DNA from: a virus | Reading direction: 5' to 3' (one strand) | Length of the DNA: 64,000 nucleotides | IMG/VR virus record: IMGVR_UViG_3300044638_008494 | Coordinates: 43,023 to 107,022 of that record | In this document: positions 42,583-64,000 of the stretch, piece after piece | Layout of the letters: each line of letters starts with the position of its first letter | How positions within the stretch are numbered: the stretch's first letter is position 1 | The notes under the pieces: model-generated | What the model saw: the letters and a program-made list of their open reading frames with translations, nothing else | Databases searched by the model: none | What the model was told of the DNA's origin: nothing | Position numbers and translations under genes: made by a program

Positions 42583-45500
42583 TCAAAGCAATAATATTAA
42601 AGCAGATGCCAATGCCGATGCTTTTGTATCGGCAAAATGGAATATTCAGATATGCCAATCTGGAGATATTGACGGTTCTAAAACAATATACCCGTTTGGT
42701 AAAAAAATGAGAAAAAATGCCATTTTAGATAACTGGCTTAGATCGGTAATATTACTATTTCAACAAACTCAATCAAATGTGAAGACCTTAGATGGGTCTG
42801 TAAATATGCGAGAGCTTACTCGTGGATATATACAATTAGGAACCGGAATTAAACCAATATCTTATTCAGATGTTCAATTATCATCATTTATAAGAGAGAG
42901 TGATTATATAAGGCCCTTTTATGGGTTTGAGACTGGTTATGGAATAATAGAATCAGGCGCAGCAATTTTTAGAAGAAGTTATGATTTTTTACCAGAAGTT
43001 AAAAATATAACATATACAGAGGCTGGTTTCAGGCCATACGCCGCATCTCTTATAAACGATAATAATTTAAAAAATAAAATATGGTCTAGATTTTTGTTTA
43101 CTGCAGAAACAGGAGTGATAGGCTTTTTAAGCGGATATATAGATAATAGTGGTATTTTTAGAATGTTTGATCATGAGATTGATCATGTAAGTGGTGTTTT
43201 TGTAGCCAATGATAAATATAATATTTCACCATTCAAATCCCGAAGAAATGAAAGAATAATTGGATTTGTAAGCGGATTTAGATTTCCAAACGGGCAATTC
43301 TCTGGGTATGCTCCAGACCCAAGATATAACTTAAGTGGTTACTTTGTAAGCGGTACAAAATATAATTTTAATCCAATTACAGAACTTTCCAACCAGCCAA
43401 TAACAGGTTATATATCTGGATATGCAGATGAGTTTGGTAATTTTTCAGGGTTTAGTAATCGTTCAATATCTGGAGTTAGTGGTTATTTTATAGATAATAA
43501 TGCTTACAAATTTAAACCAAATAGATATTTTGAATCGGAAACGATCACTGGCTTTATAAGCGGATCAATTGACAAATACAATAATTTTTCAGGAAATATT
43601 AACAATCCTTCAAGTGGGTATCTAATAAATAGCGAAAAATATAATTTTCCAACAGGAAATATGTTTTCTGGCTTTTCAGGTCAAGATTATTTTTATGACG
43701 ATTGGGGTTATAATTATAGTGGATTTAATAATATTAACAGTGGATTTTCAGGCAATAATAAATTTAATGAAAAAATAATTGGATATATAAGTGGATATTT
43801 AAATGTATCTGGAGTTTTTTCCGGATTGAATCTTTTGAATACATCATCCGGATCAAGTGGTTATTTTATTGACAATCAAAGATTTCAATTCCCATCCATT
43901 GGATTTAATAAATTTGATAATCAATATTTGTTTAACAAAAACATCGGATATAATTATACTGGGTTTAACTTTGCTGATGGTAGTGGATTTTCTGGCGTAG
44001 AATTTGGCAATTCTGGCTTATGTATAGTAACTGGATTTATTGGTGATAGAAATTTTTATACAGGAAACGGCATTTATACTAATGATATTGGAAATAGAAT
44101 TTTATTAAAATATAGTGGAGAATTTAGCGGTTTTGATGGAGAAATATTAACTCAAGACATAAAAACATATTCATATTCAACTGTTAATTTCTTCATTAGC
44201 GGAACTAGTGGATTTAGCGGTATCAGTGGAGCGATATCTGGTTATGGAATATTAACAGGAATAATTGGTAGCCGCACAATATTTTATAAAAGTGGTCAAT
44301 TCGAAGCCTTTGAAAATAATCAATTATTTCAAAAATATTTGGATTATAAATATACTGGATTTTCTTTTCCGCAAGGTAGTGGTTTTTCTGGTACAGATTT
44401 TTTAAATTCCGGTCACGGCATAATGACTGGATTTATTGGAGATAGAAATACAGTTAATTTTTCTGGTAGATACAGTGGCCTGAGCGGAATACCAACTCAC
44501 GAATATGGATGGTACTATACAGAAGAAGGTTTTTTTGGCTCAGGGCTTCCAAATTTTACAGGAACTTTTACTGGCGGAAAATTTGATATAGGCCTAACTG
44601 GATTTAGCGGAACACCATTTCCTTCTGGAGAAAAAATTATAGGTTTTATAAGTGGATACGTAAATGAATTAAATAGTTTTGTTAGATTTGACAACGTCAA
44701 CGTTCCAAATTTTACAGGATATAGTGGTTATTATACAGACAATAGACAAAGATTTTTTCCAACAGGAGATTTATTCTCTGGATTTTCTGGGCAAAGCGGC
44801 TTTGATGCTAATTTGCAATACAGATTTACGGGGTTTAGCTTTCCAGAAGGAAGTGGTTTTTCGGGAAATGCCTGGCCTATAATTCAGAAAGAAAACGTTG
44901 TTGGATTTATAAGCGGTTTCATGACTGAAGTTCAGCAATTTATACCATTTCAAAACCTATATCCAGAACTATCATCAAGCGGATATTATATCAGTGGAGC
45001 CCAAAGATTTTTTCCAACTGGAAATTTATTCTCTGGATTTTTTGGACAGTCAGGGCTAGATGTGTCAGCATATGAATATTCTGGATTTTTCTTATCTGGC
45101 CCGAGTGGTTTCAGTGGTGCCAACTTTATTGGATCCGGAACTGGAATATTAACTGGAATTATAGGATATAGAAAATATCCAACATACCCATTTTCTGGAA
45201 GTGGAGTAATAACTGGATACATTGGCGACCGAAATGTTTTAAAATATAGCAATACTGGCATACTTACAGGACTTATTGGTTACAAAGATTATATCTCCGG
45301 TGTCCAACTTGAATATGGTCAATTTGTTAGAGTTACTTATGAAGTTATGAGCCGTATCCCAATGCTTACTGGAGCAATTCAAGTAACAGGGTCTAATTTA
45401 GTAGACGGAGGTTTTAATGCAAGTGGACAATTAAAGCTTATTGGTTTATATGAATATATTTTTGGCTACTGGAAAATGAGAAACAACGGAAGACACACTG

Positions 45501-56060: not shown

Positions 56061-56726
56061 TTAATTATCTAAAAACTTTAGTTTGATTTTGCCATTGCTG
56101 TCTATTAATGCATAGCTAACTGGCAGGTCGCACTGTGAGCCTAAGTTTACACACTCTACCCCATCCACAGTTTTGTGTTCGGGCATATGGGTGTGACCAA
56201 AAACAACCGTATTGCATCCGAGATCTCGGCCATGATGGGCAACCCGGCGCAACACTCTTTCCGCCGAAGAACGCCACGTTTTTATTTTTCGCTTGAGTTT
56301 CCGGGTGAATTTTTGCCCACGATCTATTTTTTGCAAGAAATAATACACTCCAGATGCTATTTCAGTGAGTACTGGCCGCATTTTAATAATATAATCCCAA
56401 CGATCACCGTGGACAAAATAAAAACGCTTTCCATTAATAACCTCAATGTGTTCGTGTTTAAAATCAAAACCTAATAGCGCACTAACAGTATCCAGATCGC
56501 GGTCATGATTACCCTTAATAAAAATGCATTTTTTATTTTTTGATAGCTTACGTAACAGCGATAATACCTTCCACTGACGTTTGCATAAACGATGAATATT
56601 GTACGAATCCAGCAAATCTCCACATATTATTAAACTATCATACGTTTCCTCTTCAAGTATTTTTAAAACTAAATCTGCTTGGCATACAGGGCTGCCAAGA
56701 TGTATGTCTGAAAGGCACAGTATCAT
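56061..56726 (-). CDS. Calcineurin-like metallophosphoesterase (UDP-2,3-diacylglucosamine hydrolase-like subgroup)
   Basis: SDIHLG, GDLLD, GNHD, HGD and GHTH motifs. Confidence 0.85.
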   Translation of the reverse strand: MILCLSDIHLGSPVCQADLVLKILEEETYDSLIICGDLLDSYNIHRLCKRQWKVLSLLRKLSKNKKCIFIKGNHDRDLDTVSALLGFDFKHEHIEVINGKRFYFVHGDRWDYIIKMRPVLTEIASGVYYFLQKIDRGQKFTRKLKRKIKTWRSSAERVLRRVAHHGRDLGCNTVVFGHTHMPEHKTVDGVECVNLGSQCDLPVSYALIDSNGKIKLKFLDN

Positions 56727-57041
56727 AATGTTTTATATTATTTTTTTTATTTACTACTTTTTACCTCACTTGATTACACTCTTCGACCATTTATAGCATA
56801 TTACAATATAGAAACAAACAGCCCATGCATTTTTAATTCTTTTTTATTATATATGGGTTGATTTTATTGGTGTTAGGATACCCTAGCCCCCTGATAAGTA
56901 AAAGAAGGATAGATTTAAAAGTTGTAGAGTTTTAAAAATAGGCCCCAGCGAGCAAAAGTTCAAACGCTCGTATGAATTTTTTTCAAAAATGGGGGGGGTG
57001 TTTGTCAACAAAAAAAGTTTCATTAATCGTAAAAAAATCCC

Positions 57042-57069
57042 TTGCTTTCTGGCTGTTTTGTGTTACCTT
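57042..57069 (+). promoter_or_regulatory. Sigma70-type early promoter, leaderless
   Basis: TTGCTT-16-TACCTT with extended TG; ATG 6 nt downstream; upstream A tract. Confidence 0.65.
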
Positions 57070-57075
57070 GTAGAC

Positions 57076-57366
57076 ATGAAAGAAATAGAAAACAAATTCA
57101 CCAAAGGACAAATCTACCGCCTCGAGTATCTGTCTCGGATGGGTCGCTTCCACTACCACAACGTAGAGTTCGTTCGCTACGTTGGCCCCTTCTACTTTGA
57201 AGGTCGCTACTCTTGGGATGATAACTCGATCCCTTGCGGCAACTACTGGTTCCGTAACGAAAAGGATGAGCCTACTCAAGTCGTCGAGTGGCAAGTCAAC
57301 GAAAAGACTCAAGAAGTCGAAGCGTTCGGCAAGTGGGAAAGAAACTTCCGCTACCAAGACTGGTAA
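57076..57366 (+). CDS. Early hypothetical protein (MKEIENKF...)
   Basis: Start set by promoter geometry. Confidence 0.75.
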   Translation: MKEIENKFTKGQIYRLEYLSRMGRFHYHNVEFVRYVGPFYFEGRYSWDDNSIPCGNYWFRNEKDEPTQVVEWQVNEKTQEVEAFGKWERNFRYQDW

Positions 57367-57372
57367 AAAATC

Positions 57373-57603
57373 ATGAACACATACGATAACGAAATCATCC
57401 ACAAAGGTAAGGAATACTACCTCTCGACGGAGTATGGCTTTGACCATACTGACACCCTGCAACTCTCGGGCTTTCTCTTGACCGATGAGGATGGAGAAGA
57501 AATCTCGCAAGAGGACTTTGAGGCGAACACCGATCTTTATGATCATGTTTGCACTATCCTCGCAAACGAAAGTGCCGTCTGTTATGGCGGCGCACCTTGC
57601 TGA
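57373..57603 (+). CDS. Early acidic hypothetical protein
   Basis: 76 aa, 6 nt after the previous stop. Confidence 0.7.
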   Translation: MNTYDNEIIHKGKEYYLSTEYGFDHTDTLQLSGFLLTDEDGEEISQEDFEANTDLYDHVCTILANESAVCYGGAPC

Positions 57604-57607
57604 CACT

Positions 57608-57694
57608 ATGACAAAGAACGCTATGACATACATCGCTGAAGCACTCGCCGTGGTGCTCATCCTCCTGCTCGGCGTTGCGATTCTTTCGCTCTAA
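57608..57694 (+). CDS. 28-aa membrane peptide
   Basis: MTKNAMTYIAEALAVVLILLLGVAILSL; its stop is the first TAA of repeat R1. Confidence 0.5.
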   Translation: MTKNAMTYIAEALAVVLILLLGVAILSL

Positions 57695-57766
57695 GTTGTT
57701 GTAAATCAACGACTTACAGAGCCGGGCCGGGCCGCCGGGCGTAAGTCCTTGGTATTCAACGACTTA
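57692..57766. repeat. Cassette repeat R1 (25-bp box / 25-bp GC core / 25-bp box)
   Basis: taagttgttgtaaatcaacgactta-cagagccgggccgggccgccgggcg-taagtccttggtattcaacgactta. Confidence 0.95.
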
Positions 57767-57778
57767 CACAAATACACG

Positions 57779-57795
57779 TTCAAGAAGTGTGCCAA
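57779..57795 (-). promoter_or_regulatory. Sigma54-like -24/-12 element
   Basis: Minus strand TTGGCACACTTCTTGAA, 12 nt from R1. Confidence 0.5.
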
Positions 57796-57835
57796 CTCTC
57801 CGAAAAAAAGTTTTACATAATCGAAAAAAAATCCA

Positions 57836-57863
57836 TTGACTTTTCCGAGTCTTGTGCTATTCT
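57836..57863 (+). promoter_or_regulatory. Sigma70-type early promoter, leaderless
   Basis: TTGACT-16-TATTCT with extended TG; ATG at 57870. Confidence 0.75.
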
Positions 57864-57869
57864 ATATAC

Positions 57870-58244
57870 ATGAACAAAAACGAAACCACATTCAACGTCA
57901 ACGGAACCCTCTGCACCCTCGTCATCTCTGAGGACAACGATGGCGACTGCATCAAACTCTGGCACGATCTCGTCAGCGTCGAGACTGGCAAGGTTCTCGC
58001 AACCCTCGACTGGTCGCCCTACTCCATCCCTTCCGATGAGGAAGTGCAACAGATCATCGACTTGGGGGAAGTCGTTCTCGGAAAATTCACCTTGCCCGAA
58101 GGTTTGCGCTGGTCTAACTCTCACCCCATGTCCCGCATGAACTTCTGCTCGGACGTTCTCGCCATGTTCCTCGCTGGCGAGGAGCATCCCCAAGGCGGGA
58201 AGCTGGAGCTTGTGTTCCGCGTGCGTCATTCCGTTGCCGCATAA
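57870..58244 (+). CDS. Early hypothetical protein (MNKNETTF...)
   Basis: Start set by promoter geometry. Confidence 0.75.
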   Translation: MNKNETTFNVNGTLCTLVISEDNDGDCIKLWHDLVSVETGKVLATLDWSPYSIPSDEEVQQIIDLGEVVLGKFTLPEGLRWSNSHPMSRMNFCSDVLAMFLAGEEHPQGGKLELVFRVRHSVAA

Positions 58245-58252
58245 AAAATCTC

Positions 58253-58281
58253 TTGCGTTTCCGCTCAACATCCCATACTCT
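58253..58281 (+). promoter_or_regulatory. Sigma70-type early promoter, leaderless
   Basis: TTGCGT-17-TACTCT; ATG at 58288. Confidence 0.65.
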
Positions 58282-58287
58282 AACAAC

Positions 58288-58503
58288 ATGAACAGCATCC
58301 ACGACGACTACAGCACGCAACCGCAATCCGACGAATACGCGACCGAGCACGAGGAAGTGCGCGGCGCGTTCGCCGCCGAGCCTGCCGTTGAGCAGGAGCC
58401 CGAGCCCCAACCCTATGATGGGTTCGAGGGCCAATGGGCAGGCGATGGATCGGGCTTCGACGACCTCGCGGACTTGGGTGAGCAGGAGGGCTGGGACACG
58501 TAA
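58288..58503 (+). CDS. Very acidic small early protein
   Basis: 71 aa, D/E-rich, MNSIHDDYS...EQEGWDT. Confidence 0.7.
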   Translation: MNSIHDDYSTQPQSDEYATEHEEVRGAFAAEPAVEQEPEPQPYDGFEGQWAGDGSGFDDLADLGEQEGWDT

Positions 58504-58574
58504 GAGTGTCATAAACTTTCTCCGAACGTTTCGATGCGCGTCTCCATGGCGCGGGAATAAACGATGAGGAGAGT

Positions 58575-58606
58575 GAAACGCTCGTTCTAAACGGGCGTTT
58601 CTTTTT
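58575..58606 (+). terminator. Intrinsic terminator
   Basis: GAAACGCTCGTT/AACGGGCGTTTC stem followed by TTTTT. Confidence 0.75.
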
Positions 58607-58625
58607 GCCTAAATTGCTTCTTGTG

Positions 58626-58700
58626 TAAACCCTTGATATTCAACCGCTTACGCAACCGGGCGGGGCGCCCGGCTCTAAGTCCTTGATACTCAACCACTTA
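58626..58700. repeat. Cassette repeat R2 (variant core)
   Basis: taaacccttgatattcaaccgctta-cgcaaccgggcggggcgcccggctc-taagtccttgatactcaaccactta. Confidence 0.9.
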
Positions 58701-58791
58701 CGTAATGCCTTGCGAACCCGCATGGATACTGGCTTCGCGGGCGTCAAGCTTTTTTATGAAAAAAAATTCTTCATCAAATCAAAAAAATCCG

Positions 58792-58819
58792 TTGTTTTCT
58801 GCGAGGCCCGTGCTATTCT
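58792..58819 (+). promoter_or_regulatory. Sigma70-type early promoter, leaderless
   Basis: TTGTTT-16-TATTCT with extended TG; ATG at 58826. Confidence 0.65.
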
Positions 58820-58825
58820 GTATAC

Positions 58826-59017
58826 ATGAGAAACAACAGAAGCTGGCGCGACGAAGAACGCGAAGCAACCCTCGACTACCCGCTGGCCGTGGATCGTGAA
58901 GATCCCGCCTACCGGCAGAACCCAGACGCTTACGAGCGTGAAATCGAGCGCCTTAATCGGCACGAAGGCTGGGAGCGTAGCCGTTGCGGTTACTACTATA
59001 GCCGCAACTACCGCTGA
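58826..59017 (+). CDS. Early hypothetical protein
   Basis: 63 aa, start fits promoter. Confidence 0.7.
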   Translation: MRNNRSWRDEEREATLDYPLAVDREDPAYRQNPDAYEREIERLNRHEGWERSRCGYYYSRNYR

Positions 59018-59026
59018 AAAAGCCTC

Positions 59027-59055
59027 TTGACTTTCAGCCCATTTTCACCGATACT
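59027..59055 (+). promoter_or_regulatory. Sigma70-type early promoter, leaderless
   Basis: TTGACT-17-GATACT; ATG at 59062. Confidence 0.65.
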
Positions 59056-59061
59056 TTCGAT

Positions 59062-59229
59062 ATGACAGAAAACACCACACCTACTGGCTGGCCCGAAGTC
59101 TGGAACTTCGACGAACCCAAAGACGACAACCTCACCCCAGAGGAAGCGTTTGACATCCTTTTCGGCTACGCCGAGGAGCGTCATCGCAACGACCCGTGCG
59201 CTCGTCCCGCCCCCAAACCCAAACACTAA
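59062..59229 (+). CDS. Early hypothetical protein, 55 aa (not in ORF track)
   Basis: MTENTTPTGWPEVWNFDEPK...PKPKH, hand-translated. Confidence 0.65.
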   Translation: MTENTTPTGWPEVWNFDEPKDDNLTPEEAFDILFGYAEERHRNDPCARPAPKPKH

Positions 59230-59233
59230 CACT

Positions 59234-59443
59234 ATGACAAACACAGACGGCATCATCAAGTCGCTTGAAACCCTTATCAAGCATGAAAAAGCAATTCAAC
59301 GCCAAGGGGATCAAATCGAAGAAATAAAAAATGTCATTCAAGGAACCTTGCAAACAATTCAAGGCTTGATTGTGGTCAACGCTGTTCTCACAAGAGAGAT
59401 TGAAAATTTGCGAAATAACAAGCCTTTCTTTGGACTGAACTAA
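59234..59443 (+). CDS. Early coiled-coil protein
   Basis: MTNTDGIIKSLETL..., starts 4 nt after the previous stop. Confidence 0.65.
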   Translation: MTNTDGIIKSLETLIKHEKAIQRQGDQIEEIKNVIQGTLQTIQGLIVVNAVLTREIENLRNNKPFFGLN

Positions 59444-59444
59444 C

Positions 59445-59600
59445 ATGAGCAGAATCATTATGACAATCGACACGCGACCGCTTGCGCGTGTCATAGAGCG
59501 CAGCGTCCGCAAGACATCTTGCCGCCCATCCTTCGCTATGCGCGTCAAGACAAAATTCTCACGCAAGGCAAAGTTTTTTCGCGGTTGGAAAGACGAGTAA
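59445..59600 (+). CDS. Basic early protein, 51 aa (not in ORF track)
   Basis: MSRIIMTIDTRPL...KTKFSRKAKFFRGWKDE; its stop is the first TAA of R3. Confidence 0.55.
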   Translation: MSRIIMTIDTRPLARVIERSVRKTSCRPSFAMRVKTKFSRKAKFFRGWKDE

Positions 59601-59672
59601 AGCGTTGGTAATCAAGCACTTGCGTTACCGGGCCGGGCCGCCGGGCGTAAGTCGTTGATAGTGAAAGACTTA
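59598..59672. repeat. Cassette repeat R3
   Basis: taaagcgttggtaatcaagcacttg-cgttaccgggccgggccgccgggcg-taagtcgttgatagtgaaagactta. Confidence 0.95.
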
Positions 59673-59700
59673 TATAAAATGTTTTTTTAAAAAAAATTCA

Positions 59701-59728
59701 TTGACTTTATTCAAAAATCACTCATAAT
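59701..59728 (+). promoter_or_regulatory. Sigma70-type early promoter, leaderless
   Basis: TTGACT-16-CATAAT; ATG at 59735. Confidence 0.7.
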
Positions 59729-59734
59729 AAAGTT

Positions 59735-60040
59735 ATGAAAAAAATAATTAAAAGAGTTATAGTTACCGCATTAGCAACTGTCAGCATTGCAATGAACTGC
59801 ATTTTTGGCTTTATAATATATGCCTCATTGAAGTCAGAAGCGAACATGAAAACTTTTTGCAATTCCGAGATCGCACAAAAAGCATCTGTCACTACTCTGA
59901 AAGAAAATGGCCAATTAATGCTGCTGCTTAACAGAGATGGTAAAGAAATAAAAATAAATATTCTTGAAGCTGCTAAAAATAAACTGGCATTTGATATTCT
60001 GTCAGGTTTTTCTGCCCACGAAAAACATATTAAAAATTAG
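59735..60040 (+). CDS. Membrane-anchored protein, AT-rich
   Basis: 101 aa with an N-terminal hydrophobic helix. Confidence 0.7.
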   Translation: MKKIIKRVIVTALATVSIAMNCIFGFIIYASLKSEANMKTFCNSEIAQKASVTTLKENGQLMLLLNRDGKEIKINILEAAKNKLAFDILSGFSAHEKHIKN

Positions 60041-60047
60041 TTTTATA

Positions 60048-60122
60048 TAAACCCTTGAAAATCAACAACTTACGTAGCCGGGCCGGGCCGCCGGGCGTAA
60101 GTGCTTGATAATGAACGACTTA
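60048..60122. repeat. Cassette repeat R4
   Basis: taaacccttgaaaatcaacaactta-cgtagccgggccgggccgccgggcg-taagtgcttgataatgaacgactta. Confidence 0.95.
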
Positions 60123-60134
60123 TGCAAAACACCA

Positions 60135-60151
60135 TTCAAGAAGCGTGCCAA
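60135..60151 (-). promoter_or_regulatory. Sigma54-like -24/-12 element
   Basis: Minus strand TTGGCACGCTTCTTGAA, 12 nt from R4. Confidence 0.5.
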
Positions 60152-60212
60152 GTCTGGGCGAAATGATAAAAAATCTTGCAAAAAATTTTTCAAGGTTGTG
60201 AAAAAAAATCGC

Positions 60213-60241
60213 TTGCACTTTTTCCGAGGTCGTGCTACTTT
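60213..60241 (+). promoter_or_regulatory. Sigma70-type early promoter, leaderless
   Basis: TTGCAC-17-TACTTT with extended TG; ATG at 60248. Confidence 0.65.
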
Positions 60242-60247
60242 TTAACC

Positions 60248-60775
60248 ATGAAAGAGAAAAAAACAATCGAAGAAAGAAAGGCGTATTGTCTTTTGATGTT
60301 TTGTTTTTTTTCATTCATAGCTTTTTTGTTAGCACGCGCAGGAATGTTGTTTGCTGCTGCGAATATCATTGTGGGAACAATCATTCTTTTGCTCTCTTTT
60401 TTCTTCCTGTATGTTGGATCAGCCTTTTTGGCGATTCAAGTAGTTTCTTGGATCGGTAACAATTTTGGAAAAATTTTTACTTTTGGCGGCCACTTCAATA
60501 AACCACAACCCGCTTACAGCCTGCCAGATGGCCTTGCCGCTACCGGACAAAACGCTTGCGCTATCCTTGCCTACAATGAACTTGCAAAAAATCATCCCGA
60601 AGAAATCTTGCCCCATCTTCGCGTGATGAGGATATGGATTGAAAAAATGAATGACGTTGACGCTGCGGTTATGGCTTACAATCTCGCCTTAAAAAAAATT
60701 CGCGGACAAAAAAATCGCAATGAGTTTGTAAAAATGGCAAAAAATAACTTCAGCAAATTCATCAGCTTTGAATGA
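60248..60775 (+). CDS. Membrane protein with a TPR-like helical C-terminus
   Basis: Two or three hydrophobic segments, then PAYS...GQ...AILAYNELAKNHPEE. Confidence 0.7.
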   Translation: MKEKKTIEERKAYCLLMFCFFSFIAFLLARAGMLFAAANIIVGTIILLLSFFFLYVGSAFLAIQVVSWIGNNFGKIFTFGGHFNKPQPAYSLPDGLAATGQNACAILAYNELAKNHPEEILPHLRVMRIWIEKMNDVDAAVMAYNLALKKIRGQKNRNEFVKMAKNNFSKFISFE

Positions 60776-60793
60776 GTGTCATAGTAATGTCAT

Positions 60794-60824
60794 AAAGCGT
60801 CCGCGCAAGCGGGCGTTTTACTTT
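60794..60824 (+). terminator. Intrinsic terminator
   Basis: AAAGCGTCCGC-GCAA-GCGGGCGTTTT (GNRA loop). Confidence 0.7.
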
Positions 60825-60843
60825 GCGCGAATCCAATTCTCCA

Positions 60844-60918
60844 TAAACCCTTGAAAATCAACAACTTACGTAGCCGGGCCGGGCCGCCGGGCGTAACCCC
60901 TTGATAATCAAGCACTTA
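60844..60918. repeat. Cassette repeat R5
   Basis: First 53 nt identical to R4; right box taaccccttgataatcaagcactta. Confidence 0.95.
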
Positions 60919-60930
60919 TGCATTATAGCA

Positions 60931-60947
60931 TTCAAGAAGTGTGCCAA
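60931..60947 (-). promoter_or_regulatory. Sigma54-like -24/-12 element
   Basis: Minus strand TTGGCACACTTCTTGAA, 12 nt from R5. Confidence 0.5.
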
Positions 60948-60986
60948 TCGTAGCGAATGGGCAAAAATAAAAAATAAAAAAATCCC

Positions 60987-61014
60987 TTGCATTTCTGCGG
61001 CTCTGTGATATTCT
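60987..61014 (+). promoter_or_regulatory. Sigma70-type early promoter, leaderless
   Basis: TTGCAT-16-TATTCT with extended TG; ATG at 61021. Confidence 0.7.
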
Positions 61015-61020
61015 TTAAAC

Positions 61021-61173
61021 ATGGAAAAGAAAATGACTCAATACGCGGACAAGCTCAATGCCTTCCGCGCTGGCGAAATCACCGAGGACGAATGGAAAGC
61101 GTTCTGCTTTGAAGCTCTCTCCGAGATCCTCGAAGACACGAAAGATGTCCTCATCAGGCTGAAAAACGCTTGA
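61021..61173 (+). CDS. Early hypothetical protein, 50 aa (not in ORF track)
   Basis: MEKKMTQYADKLNAFRAGEITEDEWKAFC...RLKNA. Confidence 0.65.
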   Translation: MEKKMTQYADKLNAFRAGEITEDEWKAFCFEALSEILEDTKDVLIRLKNA

Positions 61174-61198
61174 CTCAATCGCAACAATTAAACATACT
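61170..61198 (+). promoter_or_regulatory. Sigma70-type early promoter, leaderless
   Basis: TTGACT-17-CATACT; ATG at 61205. Confidence 0.7.
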
Positions 61199-61204
61199 AT
61201 CACC

Positions 61205-61384
61205 ATGAATAAACAAACACCACAAAAAGCCCAACTCTGGGCAGTCGGAAACAAAGTCTATCGCGTCATCCGTAACGAAGGCGACAAGACTCACGTTCAC
61301 CATCACGGAGAAATGGCCCTGTTCTACACGCGCCATTTGAAAATGGCGACACCTTCCCAAGTTGCGGAATACTTGGGAAAATAG
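61205..61384 (+). CDS. Early hypothetical protein, 59 aa (not in ORF track)
   Basis: MNKQTPQKAQLWAVGNKVYRVIR...VAEYLGK. Confidence 0.65.
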   Translation: MNKQTPQKAQLWAVGNKVYRVIRNEGDKTHVHHHGEMALFYTRHLKMATPSQVAEYLGK

Positions 61385-61385
61385 T

Positions 61386-61414
61386 TTGACAATCACCACA
61401 AAACCTAACAGAAT
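61386..61414 (+). promoter_or_regulatory. Sigma70-type early promoter, leaderless
   Basis: TTGACA-17-CAGAAT; ATG at 61421. Confidence 0.65.
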
Positions 61415-61420
61415 AACAAC

Positions 61421-61609
61421 ATGACAAAAAAACAATTCACCGCCATTGCTCACATCTTGGCAAAACGCTTGGCCGAAAAAGTCAAAGCTCCCATCGGAGA
61501 ATACGAAGTTGTCGAAGTCCTCGCCTTGGACTTGGCGAAATACTTCTCGACAGAAAACCCTCGTTTCGACGAAGATCGCTTTTTGGAAGCTGTCTACACT
61601 CACAGATAA
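61421..61609 (+). CDS. Small phage protein (MTKKQFTAIA...ENPRFDEDRFLEA)
   Basis: 62 aa; NPRFD..RF..A pattern. Confidence 0.75.
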   Translation: MTKKQFTAIAHILAKRLAEKVKAPIGEYEVVEVLALDLAKYFSTENPRFDEDRFLEAVYTHR

Positions 61610-61614
61610 AAACC

Positions 61615-61704
61615 ATGTCAATCTGGGTTCCACTCTTTTACCTTTGCATCATGCCAGCCGCTTGCGGATTCTTAATCCTCTGGGCTGATTCCAGAAAAAA
61701 ATAA
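61615..61704 (+). CDS. 29-aa membrane peptide
   Basis: MSIWVPLFYLCIMPAACGFLILWADSRKK, tightly packed between neighbours. Confidence 0.45.
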   Translation: MSIWVPLFYLCIMPAACGFLILWADSRKK

Positions 61705-61708
61705 TCAC

Positions 61709-61888
61709 ATGAAAAAATACATCACATTCGACAAGATTGCTTACGCAATGTCCCTCTCAACCTTCATCTTCATCGCGGTAACGCTTTGCGCTGCTTGTGT
61801 TAACTTGCAAAACAGAACCAGCAAGAACCAAAAGCAAATGCAGGAAGAAGTCCGCGCAATGTTTGCCCACATCGAGGCACCTCTATGA
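61709..61888 (+). CDS. 59-aa single-pass membrane protein
   Basis: MKKYITFDKIAYAMSLSTFIFIAVTLCAAC...; ATGA overlap with the next gene. Confidence 0.6.
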   Translation: MKKYITFDKIAYAMSLSTFIFIAVTLCAACVNLQNRTSKNQKQMQEEVRAMFAHIEAPL

Positions 61889-62085
61889 TTACCCCCAATA
61901 TCCAAAAAGCTCTTGAGTCAAACGGAGTCCGTTTCTTTGCAAAAGACTTTCTCATGGAAGGCATGAGGAAAGATTGCGTTGACGCTGTGCATGATGCAAA
62001 ACTCGTTTATGAGTTGCTGCGCGAACGCATGGAAGCTATTCTTTCACTCACGCCAACTTATCCAGAAACAGAAACAAATGAGTAA
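61885..62085 (+). CDS. Early hypothetical protein
   Basis: 66 aa; KDCVDAVHDA motif. Confidence 0.7.
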   Translation: MITPNIQKALESNGVRFFAKDFLMEGMRKDCVDAVHDAKLVYELLRERMEAILSLTPTYPETETNE

Positions 62086-62266
62086 AGACCAAGTCAAAGC
62101 CGTGTGCGATTACTCGCATGATGTCATAATGAAAATCAAAGCCGTGTTGGGGTTCAAAAAGAAAAGTCCTTCGCTTCTTTGTCATAGTCTCGCGCACCTC
62201 AACACCGCGACATGGCTTGAGCGCGCGGTCTGCAACGGCACAATCATGGACTACAAGCCGCGATAA
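62078..62266 (+). CDS. Early hypothetical protein (MSKDQVKAV...)
   Basis: ATG overlaps the end of the upstream gene. Confidence 0.6.
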   Translation: MSKDQVKAVCDYSHDVIMKIKAVLGFKKKSPSLLCHSLAHLNTATWLERAVCNGTIMDYKPR

Positions 62267-62268
62267 CG

Positions 62269-62343
62269 TAAGTCGTTAGCAATCAAGCACTTATGCTACC
62301 GGGCCGGGCCGCCGGGCGTAAGTCGTTCAAAATCAATAACTTA
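62269..62343. repeat. Cassette repeat R6
   Basis: taagtcgttagcaatcaagcactta-tgctaccgggccgggccgccgggcg-taagtcgttcaaaatcaataactta. Confidence 0.95.
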
Positions 62344-62428
62344 TGAATAAGTGCAGATACTATCATGCCCATGAGAGAATTTCAAGTAAAAAAGCAAAAA
62401 ATAATTTTTAAAAAAATAAAAAAATTCA

Positions 62429-62456
62429 TTGCGTTTTCCATGATGTGTGGTATACT
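62429..62456 (+). promoter_or_regulatory. Sigma70-type promoter with no protein ORF behind it
   Basis: TTGCGT-16-TATACT with extended TG; the position 6 nt downstream reads ATG ATT TAA. Confidence 0.7.
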
Positions 62457-62462
62457 GCTTAC

Positions 62463-62663
62463 ATGATTTAAAAACAAAAGACATAATCCAGCCCAAAGAG
62501 AACCTTGGGTGTGCAAGCTGGATGTCTCACTTTCACCCTACTTTTTCTTTGAAATTTTTGATAGGACAAGAGGTTCTCCATCGAGAAGGGTTGATCGCCG
62601 GAAAAAAGGTGGAGACGTAAGCGTCGGATCGTAATGACAAGGCCTACTCCTATCAATTTTTTT
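62463..62663 (+). ncRNA. Candidate structured non-coding RNA (~200 nt)
   Basis: Own promoter, no ORF, several stems, 9-bp closing helix followed by a T tract. Confidence 0.45.
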
Positions 62664-62664
62664 C

Positions 62665-62693
62665 TTTACTTTTTTTTCTGATTCTGTTACTTT
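62665..62693 (+). promoter_or_regulatory. Sigma70-type early promoter, leaderless
   Basis: TTTACT-17-TACTTT with extended TG; ATG at 62700. Confidence 0.55.
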
Positions 62694-62699
62694 AGCTTT

Positions 62700-62894
62700 A
62701 TGACAAAAGAAACCACTAAATGCCCCAAGTGCGGGGGGAAAGCCACGCAAACCTACGAGCCACCCTATCAGGAATACGCTGGAGCCAGCGTGCAGGGCGG
62801 CTACTACTTCGTGGAGTGCGCTTGCGGCCACGAAGGCTTCGAGAAGGCCAGTCTCGACGACTACAACTGGCAAGAGAATACAAGGGGCTGGTAA
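62700..62894 (+). CDS. Small zinc-ribbon early protein
   Basis: CPKCGG...ECACGH; its stop is the first TAA of R7. Confidence 0.7.
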   Translation: MTKETTKCPKCGGKATQTYEPPYQEYAGASVQGGYYFVECACGHEGFEKASLDDYNWQENTRGW

Positions 62895-62966
62895 CCCCTT
62901 CATTCTCAAGGACTTGCGTTACCGGGCCGGGCCGCCGGGCGTAAGTCGTTGAATATCAGCAACTTA
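62892..62966. repeat. Cassette repeat R7
   Basis: taaccccttcattctcaaggacttg-cgttaccgggccgggccgccgggcg-taagtcgttgaatatcagcaactta. Confidence 0.95.
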
Positions 62967-62978
62967 TAGATTATCCCG

Positions 62979-62995
62979 TTCAAAAAGTGTGCCAA
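62979..62995 (-). promoter_or_regulatory. Sigma54-like -24/-12 element
   Basis: Minus strand TTGGCACACTTTTTGAA, 12 nt from R7. Confidence 0.5.
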
Positions 62996-63044
62996 GTCTC
63001 GCACCAAGTAGAAAAAAAATATTTTTTTAATCATAAAAAATCCC

Positions 63045-63072
63045 TTGCGTTTTTGCGCGGCTGTGCTACTCT
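63045..63072 (+). promoter_or_regulatory. Sigma70-type early promoter, leaderless
   Basis: TTGCGT-16-TACTCT with extended TG; ATG at 63079. Confidence 0.7.
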
Positions 63073-63078
63073 ATAAGC

Positions 63079-63231
63079 ATGACAGAGAAAGAAAAAGAAT
63101 TGGCGAAGCTCTACGCTCAACTTGAACAAGCCGCAGAGGACTTACTCAACCCTTGTCTGGACGATCAAACAACTTGCTTGCTTGTCCACATGAACAAGCT
63201 CCGCAAAAAAATCCGCGAAGCTCAAAAATAA
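63079..63231 (+). CDS. Early helical protein, 50 aa (not in ORF track)
   Basis: MTEKEKELAKLYAQLEQAAEDLLN...KIREAQK. Confidence 0.65.
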   Translation: MTEKEKELAKLYAQLEQAAEDLLNPCLDDQTTCLLVHMNKLRKKIREAQK

Positions 63232-63269
63232 TCCTTGCAACCGAAAACAAAATCAAAGAAAATAAAATT

Positions 63270-63512
63270 ATGAAAATCACCAAGACTGACCTCTACGACA
63301 CCCTCATCCAAGCTCGCGTAGCTTTGTCAAAAGACATCCGCGAAACCTTGCGCGGTCGCCGTCACTCTTTCTCTCCGAACCTCTTGCGGGAATCTGTCCG
63401 CGAAAAAATCGCTGCCTATCGGTTGCTCTCCAACCTCTCGGAAATCAACGCGGAAACCTACACGCACAGCAAGCGTGACCTCGCTCGCGTAAAAAAAGCT
63501 CTTGCCAAGTAA
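63270..63512 (+). CDS. Basic early protein (MKITKTDL...)
   Basis: Start 63270 fits a weak TTGCAA-17-GAAAAT-6-ATG promoter. Confidence 0.65.
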   Translation: MKITKTDLYDTLIQARVALSKDIRETLRGRRHSFSPNLLRESVREKIAAYRLLSNLSEINAETYTHSKRDLARVKKALAK

Positions 63513-63537
63513 CGCAATCTCTGACAAAATCACCACC

Positions 63538-64000
63538 ATGACACTACTAAGCACCAACAACACCAAAATCAAAAAAGGCGAAAAGCTCGGCTGGCGCACT
63601 TACGGCCTTTCACTCTCACCCGCTGGCAAAAGTGGCAAACAATTCTGTCCGCATCGCTCGGCTGGCTGTGAGTTTGCTTGTCTCGACACTTCGGGCATGG
63701 GCATCTTTTCAAACGTGCAAGACGCACGCCTTGCAAAGTCGCGTTTCTTCATCGACAACCGCAACGAGTTTCTTTCTCAGTTGCATAAAGAATTGCACAA
63801 TGCAGAAAAGTGGAGCGCAAAAAATAATATGCCTGTCGCCGTTCGTCCGAACGTGCTTTCTGATCTGCCTTGGCATAAGCTGATCGACATGGCGCGCTTT
63901 CCGTCAATTCAGTTTTACGATTACACGCCGAACCTTCAACGCATGATGCAGTTTCTAAACGGCGAGTTGCCTAAAAATTATCATCTGACCTTCTCGCGCA
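63538..64000 (+). CDS. Gp88-like Cys-rich (radical-SAM-related) phage protein, truncated by the right edge
   Basis: Hand-translated MTLLSTNNTKIKKG...SLSPAGKSGKQFCPHRSAGCEFACLDTSG...VRPNVLSD...FYDYT...NYHLTFS; frame open to the end. Confidence 0.7.
   Translation, partial: MTLLSTNNTKIKKGEKLGWRTYGLSLSPAGKSGKQFCPHRSAGCEFACLDTSGMGIFSNVQDARLAKSRFFIDNRNEFLSQLHKELHNAEKWSAKNNMPVAVRPNVLSDLPWHKLIDMARFPSIQFYDYTPNLQRMMQFLNGELPKNYHLTFSR

Follow-up and report, generated by a model that had tools for sequence, protein, structure and literature searches.

The promoter-early stem-loop (PeSL) cassettes of T4-type phages are small, non-essential early genes separated by composite repeats, wherein the stem-loop of each repeat works as a transcription terminator and homologous exchange between repeats has been proposed to underlie the insertion, deletion and replacement of the genes that they flank (PMC2839356, PMC4122927). 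The present account concerns a repeated unit of a different make, found seven times in a window of 64,000 nucleotides that constitutes the right 64 kb (positions 43,023 to 107,022) of the linear, 107,022-bp IMG/VR viral contig IMGVR_UViG_3300044638_008494. In this unit two 25-bp palindromic boxes, most of them containing a perfect consensus for IHF, enclose a 25-bp GC-rich core, and predicted promoters of small early genes follow each unit. We consider it somewhat likelier than the contrary that the element is a regulatory boundary module that recurs through the early regions of phages.

IHF itself offers another point of reference, since its sites are known upstream of the sigma-70 phage early promoters lambda pL and Mu Pe. 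The contig is estimated by CheckV to be about 70% complete and codes for a 3108-aa tape-measure protein, a capsid protein and a terminase that is only remotely like the terminases of known phages. The array of units ends about 1 kb from the contig end and lies in a region with a GC content of 42–49%, as against about 33% for the genome.

Anatomy of the unit and its family

A repeat search of the window recovered one seven-copy family at all the positions listed in an earlier note, which had been made from the letters of the window alone. The copies start at 57692, 58626, 59598, 60048, 60844, 62269 and 62892, i.e., 934, 972, 450, 796, 1425 and 623 bp apart, and define the units R1 (57692–57766, with box L at 57692–57716, GC core at 57717–57741 and box R at 57742–57766), R2 (58626–58700), R3 (59598–59672), R4 (60048–60122), R5 (60844–60918), R6 (62269–62343) and R7 (62892–62966), none of which is assigned to a strand. 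Their alignment bears out the 25+25+25 geometry given in that note, with two 25-bp boxes around a 25-bp GC segment; the boxes have the form TAA-N4-TTGA-N3-TCAA-N4-TTA, wherein the columns TAA, TT, TCAA and TTA are invariant in both. The central 20 nt of the core are exact in 6 of the 7 copies, again in keeping with the note, and R4 and R5 share an identical box L and core; the exception is R2, with a divergent core that forms a perfect 7-bp hairpin with a GGG loop. Outside the seven units, no core, no run of 17–18 G/C and no box pair is found in the whole 107,022-bp contig. Each interval holds at least one promoter-like site and 1–7 small open reading frames (ORFs), and at R1, R3 and R7 the TAA of the first box is the stop codon of the upstream ORF, namely a hydrophobic 28-codon ORF at R1 (57609–57694), the gene of a 51-aa basic protein at R3 (59445–59600) and a zinc-ribbon ORF at R7 (62700–62894). 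These features, along with the spacing of 450–1425 bp, agree with the earlier description; in the wider family the overlap with a stop codon is occasional, at about 30 of 169 units.

The phosphoesterase gene adjoining the array leads to close relatives with 98% protein identity, one of which is a 170.5-kb genome that is complete by CheckV. They possess the same 25+25+25 units and the same boxes around a completely different GC core. Their array has 14 units over 16.5 kb and wraps around the contig ends, which indicates that the array of the present contig has been cut short by the end of the contig. R1, R2, R3, R5 and R6 are orthologous to units of a close relative (R1 to G002:169689, R2 to G002:310, R5 to G002:2681 and R6 to G002:4044). 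When IMG/VR was scanned with a pattern made of the box words and 15 G/C positions, 72 stretches emerged in about 50 further contigs, bringing the family to 334 units, of which 281 are distinct, on about 60 uncultured phage contigs. Across these 334 units the box-to-box register is 50 bp in all but one. The cores are 80–100% GC and highly diverse in sequence; a CG dinucleotide flanks every box on both sides, the palindrome measuring 29 bp with these flanks; and the core-facing half-sites are slightly better conserved than the outer ones. More distant relatives (phosphoesterase identity 65%) have neither units nor GC-rich runs. Among GenBank phage isolates the array had no match and the unit gave two weak partial ones (E 0.07 and 3), while a literature search by sequence words and topic found no published description of the unit. 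A variant array occurs on one contig of a metagenome-assembled genome (MAG) titled Enterobacterales, with the same boxes, a 17-bp GC core and a 42-bp register, in at least 14 units on 11.9 kb.

The conservation pattern of the boxes is that of a protein site in DNA. In 481 distinct boxes of the family TAA, T9, A17 and TTA are invariant or nearly so, and mirrored positions are complementary just as often as independence predicts (observed versus expected 0.407 vs 0.402 at positions 7/19, 0.607 vs 0.612 at 6/20 and 0.665 vs 0.706 at 8/18). As mirrored positions lack compensatory covariation, the boxes are, as judged from their sequences, half-sites read in DNA by a dimeric protein and not hairpins of an RNA or a cruciform. 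The IHF consensus WATCAR-N4-TTR, which the earlier note had seen in most boxes, is perfect in 12 of the 14 boxes of this phage and in 381 of the 562 boxes of the family. The whole contig has 31 matches to it, a genome background of 0.29 per kb, and 13 of these fall within boxes, whereas about 0.06 boxes would be expected by chance.

The cores have followed a different course from the boxes. Between orthologous units of two close phages, box L is 76–96% and box R 64–92% identical, as against 48–72% for the core, which is near the baseline for GC-rich sequence; within this phage, the cores are 84% identical. That cores are alike within a genome and unlike between orthologs argues for concerted evolution via short conversion tracts bounded by the boxes. 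R2 alone escaped this homogenization, and both it and its ortholog retain the GGG-loop hairpin with one compensatory pair change, as read by eye in the two sequences. These patterns bear upon a suggestion of the earlier note that the units might be IHF-bent nucleoprotein hubs with a further factor on the GC core: the part concerning the boxes is borne out in so far as they behave as protein sites bearing an IHF-type consensus, and the core-specific factor is weakened, given that the core sequence changes between close relatives, and often within a genome, with only its GC content and length kept. The homogenization within genomes keeps a weaker form of the idea of a core factor alive.

Restriction pressure may also shape the replacement of cores, as suggested by a correlation that concerns CCGG only (Spearman 0.58). 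In most family members CCGG is almost absent (0 observed against 7–30 expected per locus, cores included); the present phage shows no such avoidance, with 85 occurrences where 104 would be expected, and each of its cores contains about three. Other words show biases of their own: GTAC is depleted in the 170-kb relative (42 vs 105), and at the loci L030, L046 and L051 GGCC is found 0–1 times outside the cores against 14–20 expected and about 1.6 times per GC core, the cores thus holding nearly all of the regional GGCC.

Early promoters and the exchange of cassettes

At every unit of the array a second repeat family starts 29–92 bp 3′ of box R, with the anatomy of a promoter: an A-rich upstream stretch, a TTGC-type −35, a 16–17-bp spacer, an extended −10 (TG-n-TATTCT) and an ATG. 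All on the plus strand, these predicted early promoters lie at 57836–57872 after R1 (ATG at 57870), 58792–58828 after R2 (58826), 59701–59737 after R3 (59735), 60213–60250 after R4 (60248), 60987–61023 after R5 (61021), 62429–62465 after R6 (62463) and 63045–63081 after R7 (63079). Promoters of the same type are also present inside cassettes and, without a unit, 5′ of R1, where a member of the repeat family at 57042–57078 has the −35, the extended −10 and an ATG at 57076. In eight early promoters between 57042 and 63540 the A of the ATG stands exactly 7 nt past the −10, such that the mRNAs would be leaderless, as annotated at R1, R2, R4, R5 and R7. The ATG after R6 opens an ORF of two codons, between which and the zinc-ribbon gene at 62700 lies an untranslated leader of about 240 nt; this leader (62463–62699) has no fold signal (z = −0.02) and no Rfam match and may be a decayed gene. 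An intrinsic terminator with a 12-bp stem and a T-run is situated directly 5′ of R2 (58575–58609, plus strand), and a probable one, recognized from its repeat family and by reading of the sequence, directly 5′ of R5 (60795–60826, plus strand).

The association with promoters extends to the family. Among 269 units with enough flanking sequence, a predicted leaderless promoter lies within 250 bp of 169, in every case on one side alone; no unit has one on both, and none sits between divergent promoters. Box R most often lies 70–100 bp from the −35, within a range of 0–200 bp, and promoters aligned on the −35 display three A-tracts about one helical turn apart 5′ of it. The core is C-rich on the coding strand in 111 units versus 48. 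A separate terminator is found within 120 nt upstream of 23% of the units, versus 8% in an antisense control, and since only this fraction has a terminator of its own, many units are probably transcribed. Genome-wide, Shine-Dalgarno motifs are missing from long ORFs. At many structural and late genes a TGTAATATAA-like word is seen about 6 nt 5′ of the ATG, and this TGTAATATAA-like word suggests leaderless late mRNAs from a second class of promoter. A protein with sigma-70 region 2 is encoded by relatives.

The earlier note had also raised the possibility of a platform for gene shuffling akin to the PeSL cassettes, and the comparison of relatives shows that gene order is indeed not fixed: cassettes have been gained, lost and reordered with units at the seams. 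Relative to a close relative, the R6–R7 cassette plus one unit is an exact indel, the cassette to the right of R6 being missing from that relative, and a segment that includes R4 (59672–60467) has been replaced, with its left breakpoint at the right edge of R3 (59671). Maps of ORF clusters and units over 20 related loci reveal whole cassettes that are present, absent or reordered; for example, clusters 14-16-11-11-19 stand before or after 20-7-10, and cluster 114 moves. In some of these loci events between duplicated genes have removed a unit, and breakpoints are in part located within a gene or between duplicates. Of the synteny breakpoints, 17% are no more than 20 bp from a unit, versus 6% for random positions, the former value being inflated by the divergence of the cores. 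Neither a tyrosine (PF00589) nor a serine (PF00239) recombinase was found in the full contig or in the complete 170.5-kb relative, which extends to both genomes the earlier remark that the window has none. As the complete relative manages without a recombinase, the shuffling is probably homologous, as proposed for PeSLs, and ordinary homologous exchange between dispersed repeats suffices to account for the pattern of cassettes. With no recombinase and with some breakpoints in genes, nothing suggests a dedicated integron-like platform. The analogy with PeSLs thus holds at the level of evolutionary behavior, i.e., in the gain, loss and reordering of cassettes among relatives.

Several of the cassette genes have discernible features. 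Those at 59735–60040, 60248–60775 and 61709–61888 code for products with hydrophobic, membrane-like N-terminal segments, and the 64-aa zinc-ribbon protein (62700–62894) has a faint, non-significant match to the restriction-alleviation protein Lar (E = 0.09), which would fit an anti-defense role of the cassettes. To the right of the array, a GP88-family early gene (63538–63999, plus strand) lacks its 3′ part at the contig end.

Candidate readers of the boxes and competing explanations

A search for an IHF homolog in the phage itself was negative: neither the contig nor the complete 170.5-kb relative yielded an HU/IHF, ParB_N or XRE-type helix-turn-helix (HTH_3) domain. The palindrome does occur in bacteria. 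Its exact form was searched in 185,579 GTDB species genomes and found in 26 stretches, 23 of which belong by record title to Bacteroidota, Fibrobacter, Verrucomicrobia or Lentisphaerae. Seven are from Fibrobacter and two from Akkermansia, along with one from an untitled MAG that resembles Akkermansia loci; further carriers are other Verrucomicrobiales, Lentisphaerae, Victivallales, Cytophagales, Chitinophagales and Flavobacteriaceae. Two stretches share a single phage-like contig in a MAG titled Enterobacterales; among the others, too, a few are contigs of phage-like character that had been binned into MAGs. When up to 3 mismatches are allowed, one genome each of Akkermansia, Fibrobacter and Verrucomicrobiales has 17, 11 and 16 sites, respectively, as against 0 for the reversed control in each. 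The bacterial sites are single and intergenic. Five different tRNA genes have one 3–13 nt past their 3′ ends; elsewhere a site separates a tRNA fragment from an integrase gene or iterons from repA, and one stands 16 nt 5′ of a perfect sigma-54 promoter. IHF is classically found at attachment sites, iteron origins, sigma-54 promoters and early promoters of phages. A site also precedes a DUF932-like gene, a relative of the gene that is most widespread in the phage arrays. The same argS-adjacent place carries a site in three Akkermansia genomes, and the same two-gene operon is preceded by one in four Fibrobacter genomes; such recurrence at the same spot near housekeeping genes argues for a reader encoded by the host. 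Among the proteins of the palindrome-bearing bacteria are HU-family paralogs whose best-scoring models are those of IHF. Short of proof, the presence of the palindrome in bacterial chromosomes thus suggests a host IHF-like protein, which is the best single candidate for the reader, a tentative identification to which we lend slightly less than even credence.

The Akkermansia sites have certain peculiarities of their own. In one of the three genomes, a sub-threshold match to 6S RNA (L113:2819-3004; 38 bits, below the gathering score of 46) is situated in the divergent region at argS, some 60 nt away from the box. Beside many boxes, at 4–18 nt, there is a second small palindrome, CAGCATT-N3-AATGCTG, followed by GGG, the box and this palindrome forming a composite repeated intergenic element.

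Several observations weigh against a host IHF-like reader. The HU paralogs of the hosts of the palindrome score below the curated IHF cut-offs. A sigma-54-like promoter is found beside only 2 of 41 host sites, with about 0.6 expected by chance, and a link to sigma-54 is on this count not convincing. Near-perfect sites (≤2 mismatches) are present in only 4 of 61 sampled Verrucomicrobiota genomes, a patchiness that would also fit a factor carried by mobile elements. The N4 positions, which are free in the E. coli IHF consensus, are 58–87% conserved in the boxes (C63, G76, A87, C/G); IHF reads the minor groove and is not expected to select them. From the IHF-H′ structure, a mirror-symmetric site should have its TCAA words 5 bp apart, and here they are 3 bp apart, a spacing that may not suit that geometry. 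Nor do the boxes present the asymmetric site with a free N4 that is typical of classical IHF, each being a symmetric 25-bp palindrome. Lastly, the promoter distance is broad (0–200 bp) and helical phasing weak (R about 0.2), which together with the 42-bp variant indicates that a single fixed three-dimensional geometry is not universal.

The mechanism that we favor despite these points, wherein the nature of the reader, its bending of the DNA and its influence on transcription are inferred, can be put as follows. Each unit would be a docking module at the level of DNA, with two palindromes held in a fixed 50-bp register by the 25-bp GC spacer. Each palindrome would bind a dimeric protein, most likely a DNA-bending member of the host IHF/HU family, and the pair of boxes would form a defined bent nucleoprotein structure lodged where one early transcription unit ends, ahead of the curved A-tract region of the next promoter. 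That promoter would be a strong, leaderless, early one of sigma-70 type, and the bent structure would act as its upstream architectural or boundary (insulating) element. As a whole, the unit as a protein-docking boundary or upstream module has, in our estimate, a modest edge over being something else. Repeated every 0.5–1.5 kb in one orientation, it would also furnish a substrate for ordinary homologous recombination, which between units would produce cassette gain, loss and reordering as well as gene conversion among related phages. A more specific version is rather doubtful: a symmetric reader, IHF-like or another architectural protein of Bacteroidota, Fibrobacterota and Verrucomicrobiota, with the twin palindrome as its high-affinity site, would serve a promoter-boundary device of a new kind, shared by a large group of uncultured phages, with a stiff GC spacer and core conversion. 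Two sharp bends clamped by the spacer would then insulate or activate leaderless promoters on freshly injected DNA, while short-tract gene conversion, possibly driven by restriction, would keep the GC core uniform within a genome.

Ranking second after the host protein, and considerably less probable, is a regulator encoded by the phage or another element, a dimer or tetramer made early or carried in the virion, with the boxes as its operators; it could be a repressor by which all early promoters are silenced at once, or a loader with action at a distance in the manner of KorB at its OB sites, the bacterial copies then deriving from related mobile elements. Such a protein would account for a palindrome of 25–29 bp that is more specific than the IHF consensus and nearly invariant over very diverse phages, for the patchy distribution of near-perfect bacterial sites, often beside integrase, repA or DUF932-like genes, and, in a KorB-like or boundary mode, for the variable promoter distance. 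Two small early proteins could be considered in this role: the 51-aa basic protein encoded directly upstream of R3 (59445–59600, plus strand), conserved in 17 related contigs, and a 72-aa protein present in 16 (e.g., L069:7787-8002), which are mutually exclusive between clades. Pfam has no match for either. The former looked like a possible ribbon-helix-helix protein; its AF2 model has two helices (pLDDT 69), for which Foldseek gave no match and VIA-align only coiled-coil noise (Z up to 4.1), and taking it as a phage-encoded DNA binder is speculative. This candidate thus has no informative fold match, no candidate protein is common to all contigs, partial as the loci are, and the complete relative is devoid of the HTH_3, ParB_N and HU/IHF domains; moreover, the same-spot chromosomal sites near housekeeping genes in Akkermansia and Fibrobacter do not sit well with a phage regulator.

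Three further explanations appear far more remote. The core uniform in 6 of 7 copies and homogenized within the genome, the different core in the orthologous units of the relative, the clean indel of one cassette with one unit, the reordered cassettes and the resemblance of a core between IHF-type sites to the layout of attP would all be in keeping with sites for site-specific recombination of the attC or lox kind, wherein the core is the crossover, the boxes on either side bend the DNA and cassettes are excised and inserted as circles. This is very improbable given the missing tyrosine and serine recombinases, the presence of differing cores within one genome in many family members, a promoter of its own for each cassette, boxes devoid of a single-strand folding signal and breakpoints of which several are inside genes and only the inflated 17% close to a unit. 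It is similarly hard to credit the units with a role as RNA, i.e., as three hairpins at a 3′ end that serve as terminator, processing site or stabilizer, on the model of the RNase III processing sites of T7 or the REP stabilizers. The boxes can fold in principle, R1 folds well (z = −4.7), the core of R2 and its ortholog both form a hairpin, and many units are probably transcribed. Yet the folds of the seven copies are mutually inconsistent and mostly no better than those of shuffled sequences, with z between −0.4 and −2.2 for 6 of the 7; the halves of the boxes do not covary; and a search of 56500–64000 against Rfam, with E up to 1, was negative. Only 1 of 169 units would pass as an intrinsic terminator, the DNA 3′ of the unit being A-rich, with no T-run, and the core folds at −11.2 kcal/mol against −10.9 for shuffles, a weak excess due in part to its CG ends. 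That the units are selfish miniature mobile repeats of the MITE or Correia kind, with no function for the phage, we regard as highly unlikely too. They are short, multicopy and palindromic at their ends, they carry IHF-type sites as Correia elements do, and the palindrome is scattered over bacterial lineages. No empty site was found, however, as orthologous positions in the relative are all occupied and differences always involve whole cassettes; the units are confined to the early region, in one orientation and 5′ of promoters; their geometry is kept across very divergent phages with the core free to change; and no transposase turned up, though no search was aimed at transposase families.

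If the units are indeed boundary modules, they would constitute a widespread cis-element that organizes the early gene islands, concerned with host takeover and anti-defense, of many uncultured large phages, and would explain the swapping of genes among these islands. They would also supply a sequence tag for early regions and candidate anti-defense genes in metagenomic phage contigs. The palindromes of Akkermansia, Fibrobacter and Bacteroidota might likewise open a route to a new DNA-binding specificity in those phyla and hint at the hosts of these phages.

Relation to described repeat systems

A parallel with integrons might be struck from the arrays of small genes, the imperfectly palindromic repeats and the cassette content that varies among relatives. 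The units nevertheless show none of the integron-defining features that were tested: there is no integrase (PF00589 and PF00239 being absent), each cassette has its own promoter, and breakpoints are not confined to the repeats. Further, attC sites keep pairing and not sequence, whereas the boxes keep sequence and not pairing. The BIME/RIP-RIB elements of E. coli, chromosomal repeats not tied to promoters wherein GC-rich REP hairpins flank one IHF site, resemble the units in lying between transcription units, in uniting GC-rich DNA and IHF-type sites in an intergenic repeat and in the architectural or topological role proposed for them; the layout is inverted here, with two IHF-type palindromes around a GC spacer. 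As in the units, the KorB operators (OB) of IncP plasmids and the TF1 sites at SPO1 early promoters involve many palindromic or preferred copies at variable distance from promoters. They differ in that no ParB-like or HU-like gene was found in this phage and in that the site sequences are unrelated.

With classical IHF sites, the units share the WATCAR-N4-TTR consensus in most boxes and the placement 5′ of the A-tract or UP-like DNA of early promoters, and the bacterial copies of the palindrome are found beside tRNA-integrase junctions, repA iterons and a sigma-54 promoter. In contrast to the classical sites, which are asymmetric, single and degenerate at N4, the units consist of symmetric sites set 50 bp apart in pairs, with N4 conserved, and number 7 to 14 or more per genome. 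To our knowledge, the IHF-like proteins of Bacteroidota, Fibrobacter and Verrucomicrobia are uncharacterized. PeSLs, for their part, have in common with the units a strong sigma-70-like early promoter tied to the repeat, here in the form of the predicted promoter family, and indels and replacements at the repeats among close relatives, as seen in the one-cassette indel, the replacement at the edge of R3 and the reordering over 20 loci. The phage is not T4-like, having a tape-measure protein and a terminase that is only about 23% identical to those of Firmicutes phages, and the stem-loop terminator has no counterpart in the unit, in which two palindromes of the protein-site type are instead held rigidly on either side of a GC spacer. 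Thus, the unit may be placed between two described classes of element: in behavior it is closest to the PeSLs, and in the logic of its sequence to the IHF sites 5′ of early promoters.

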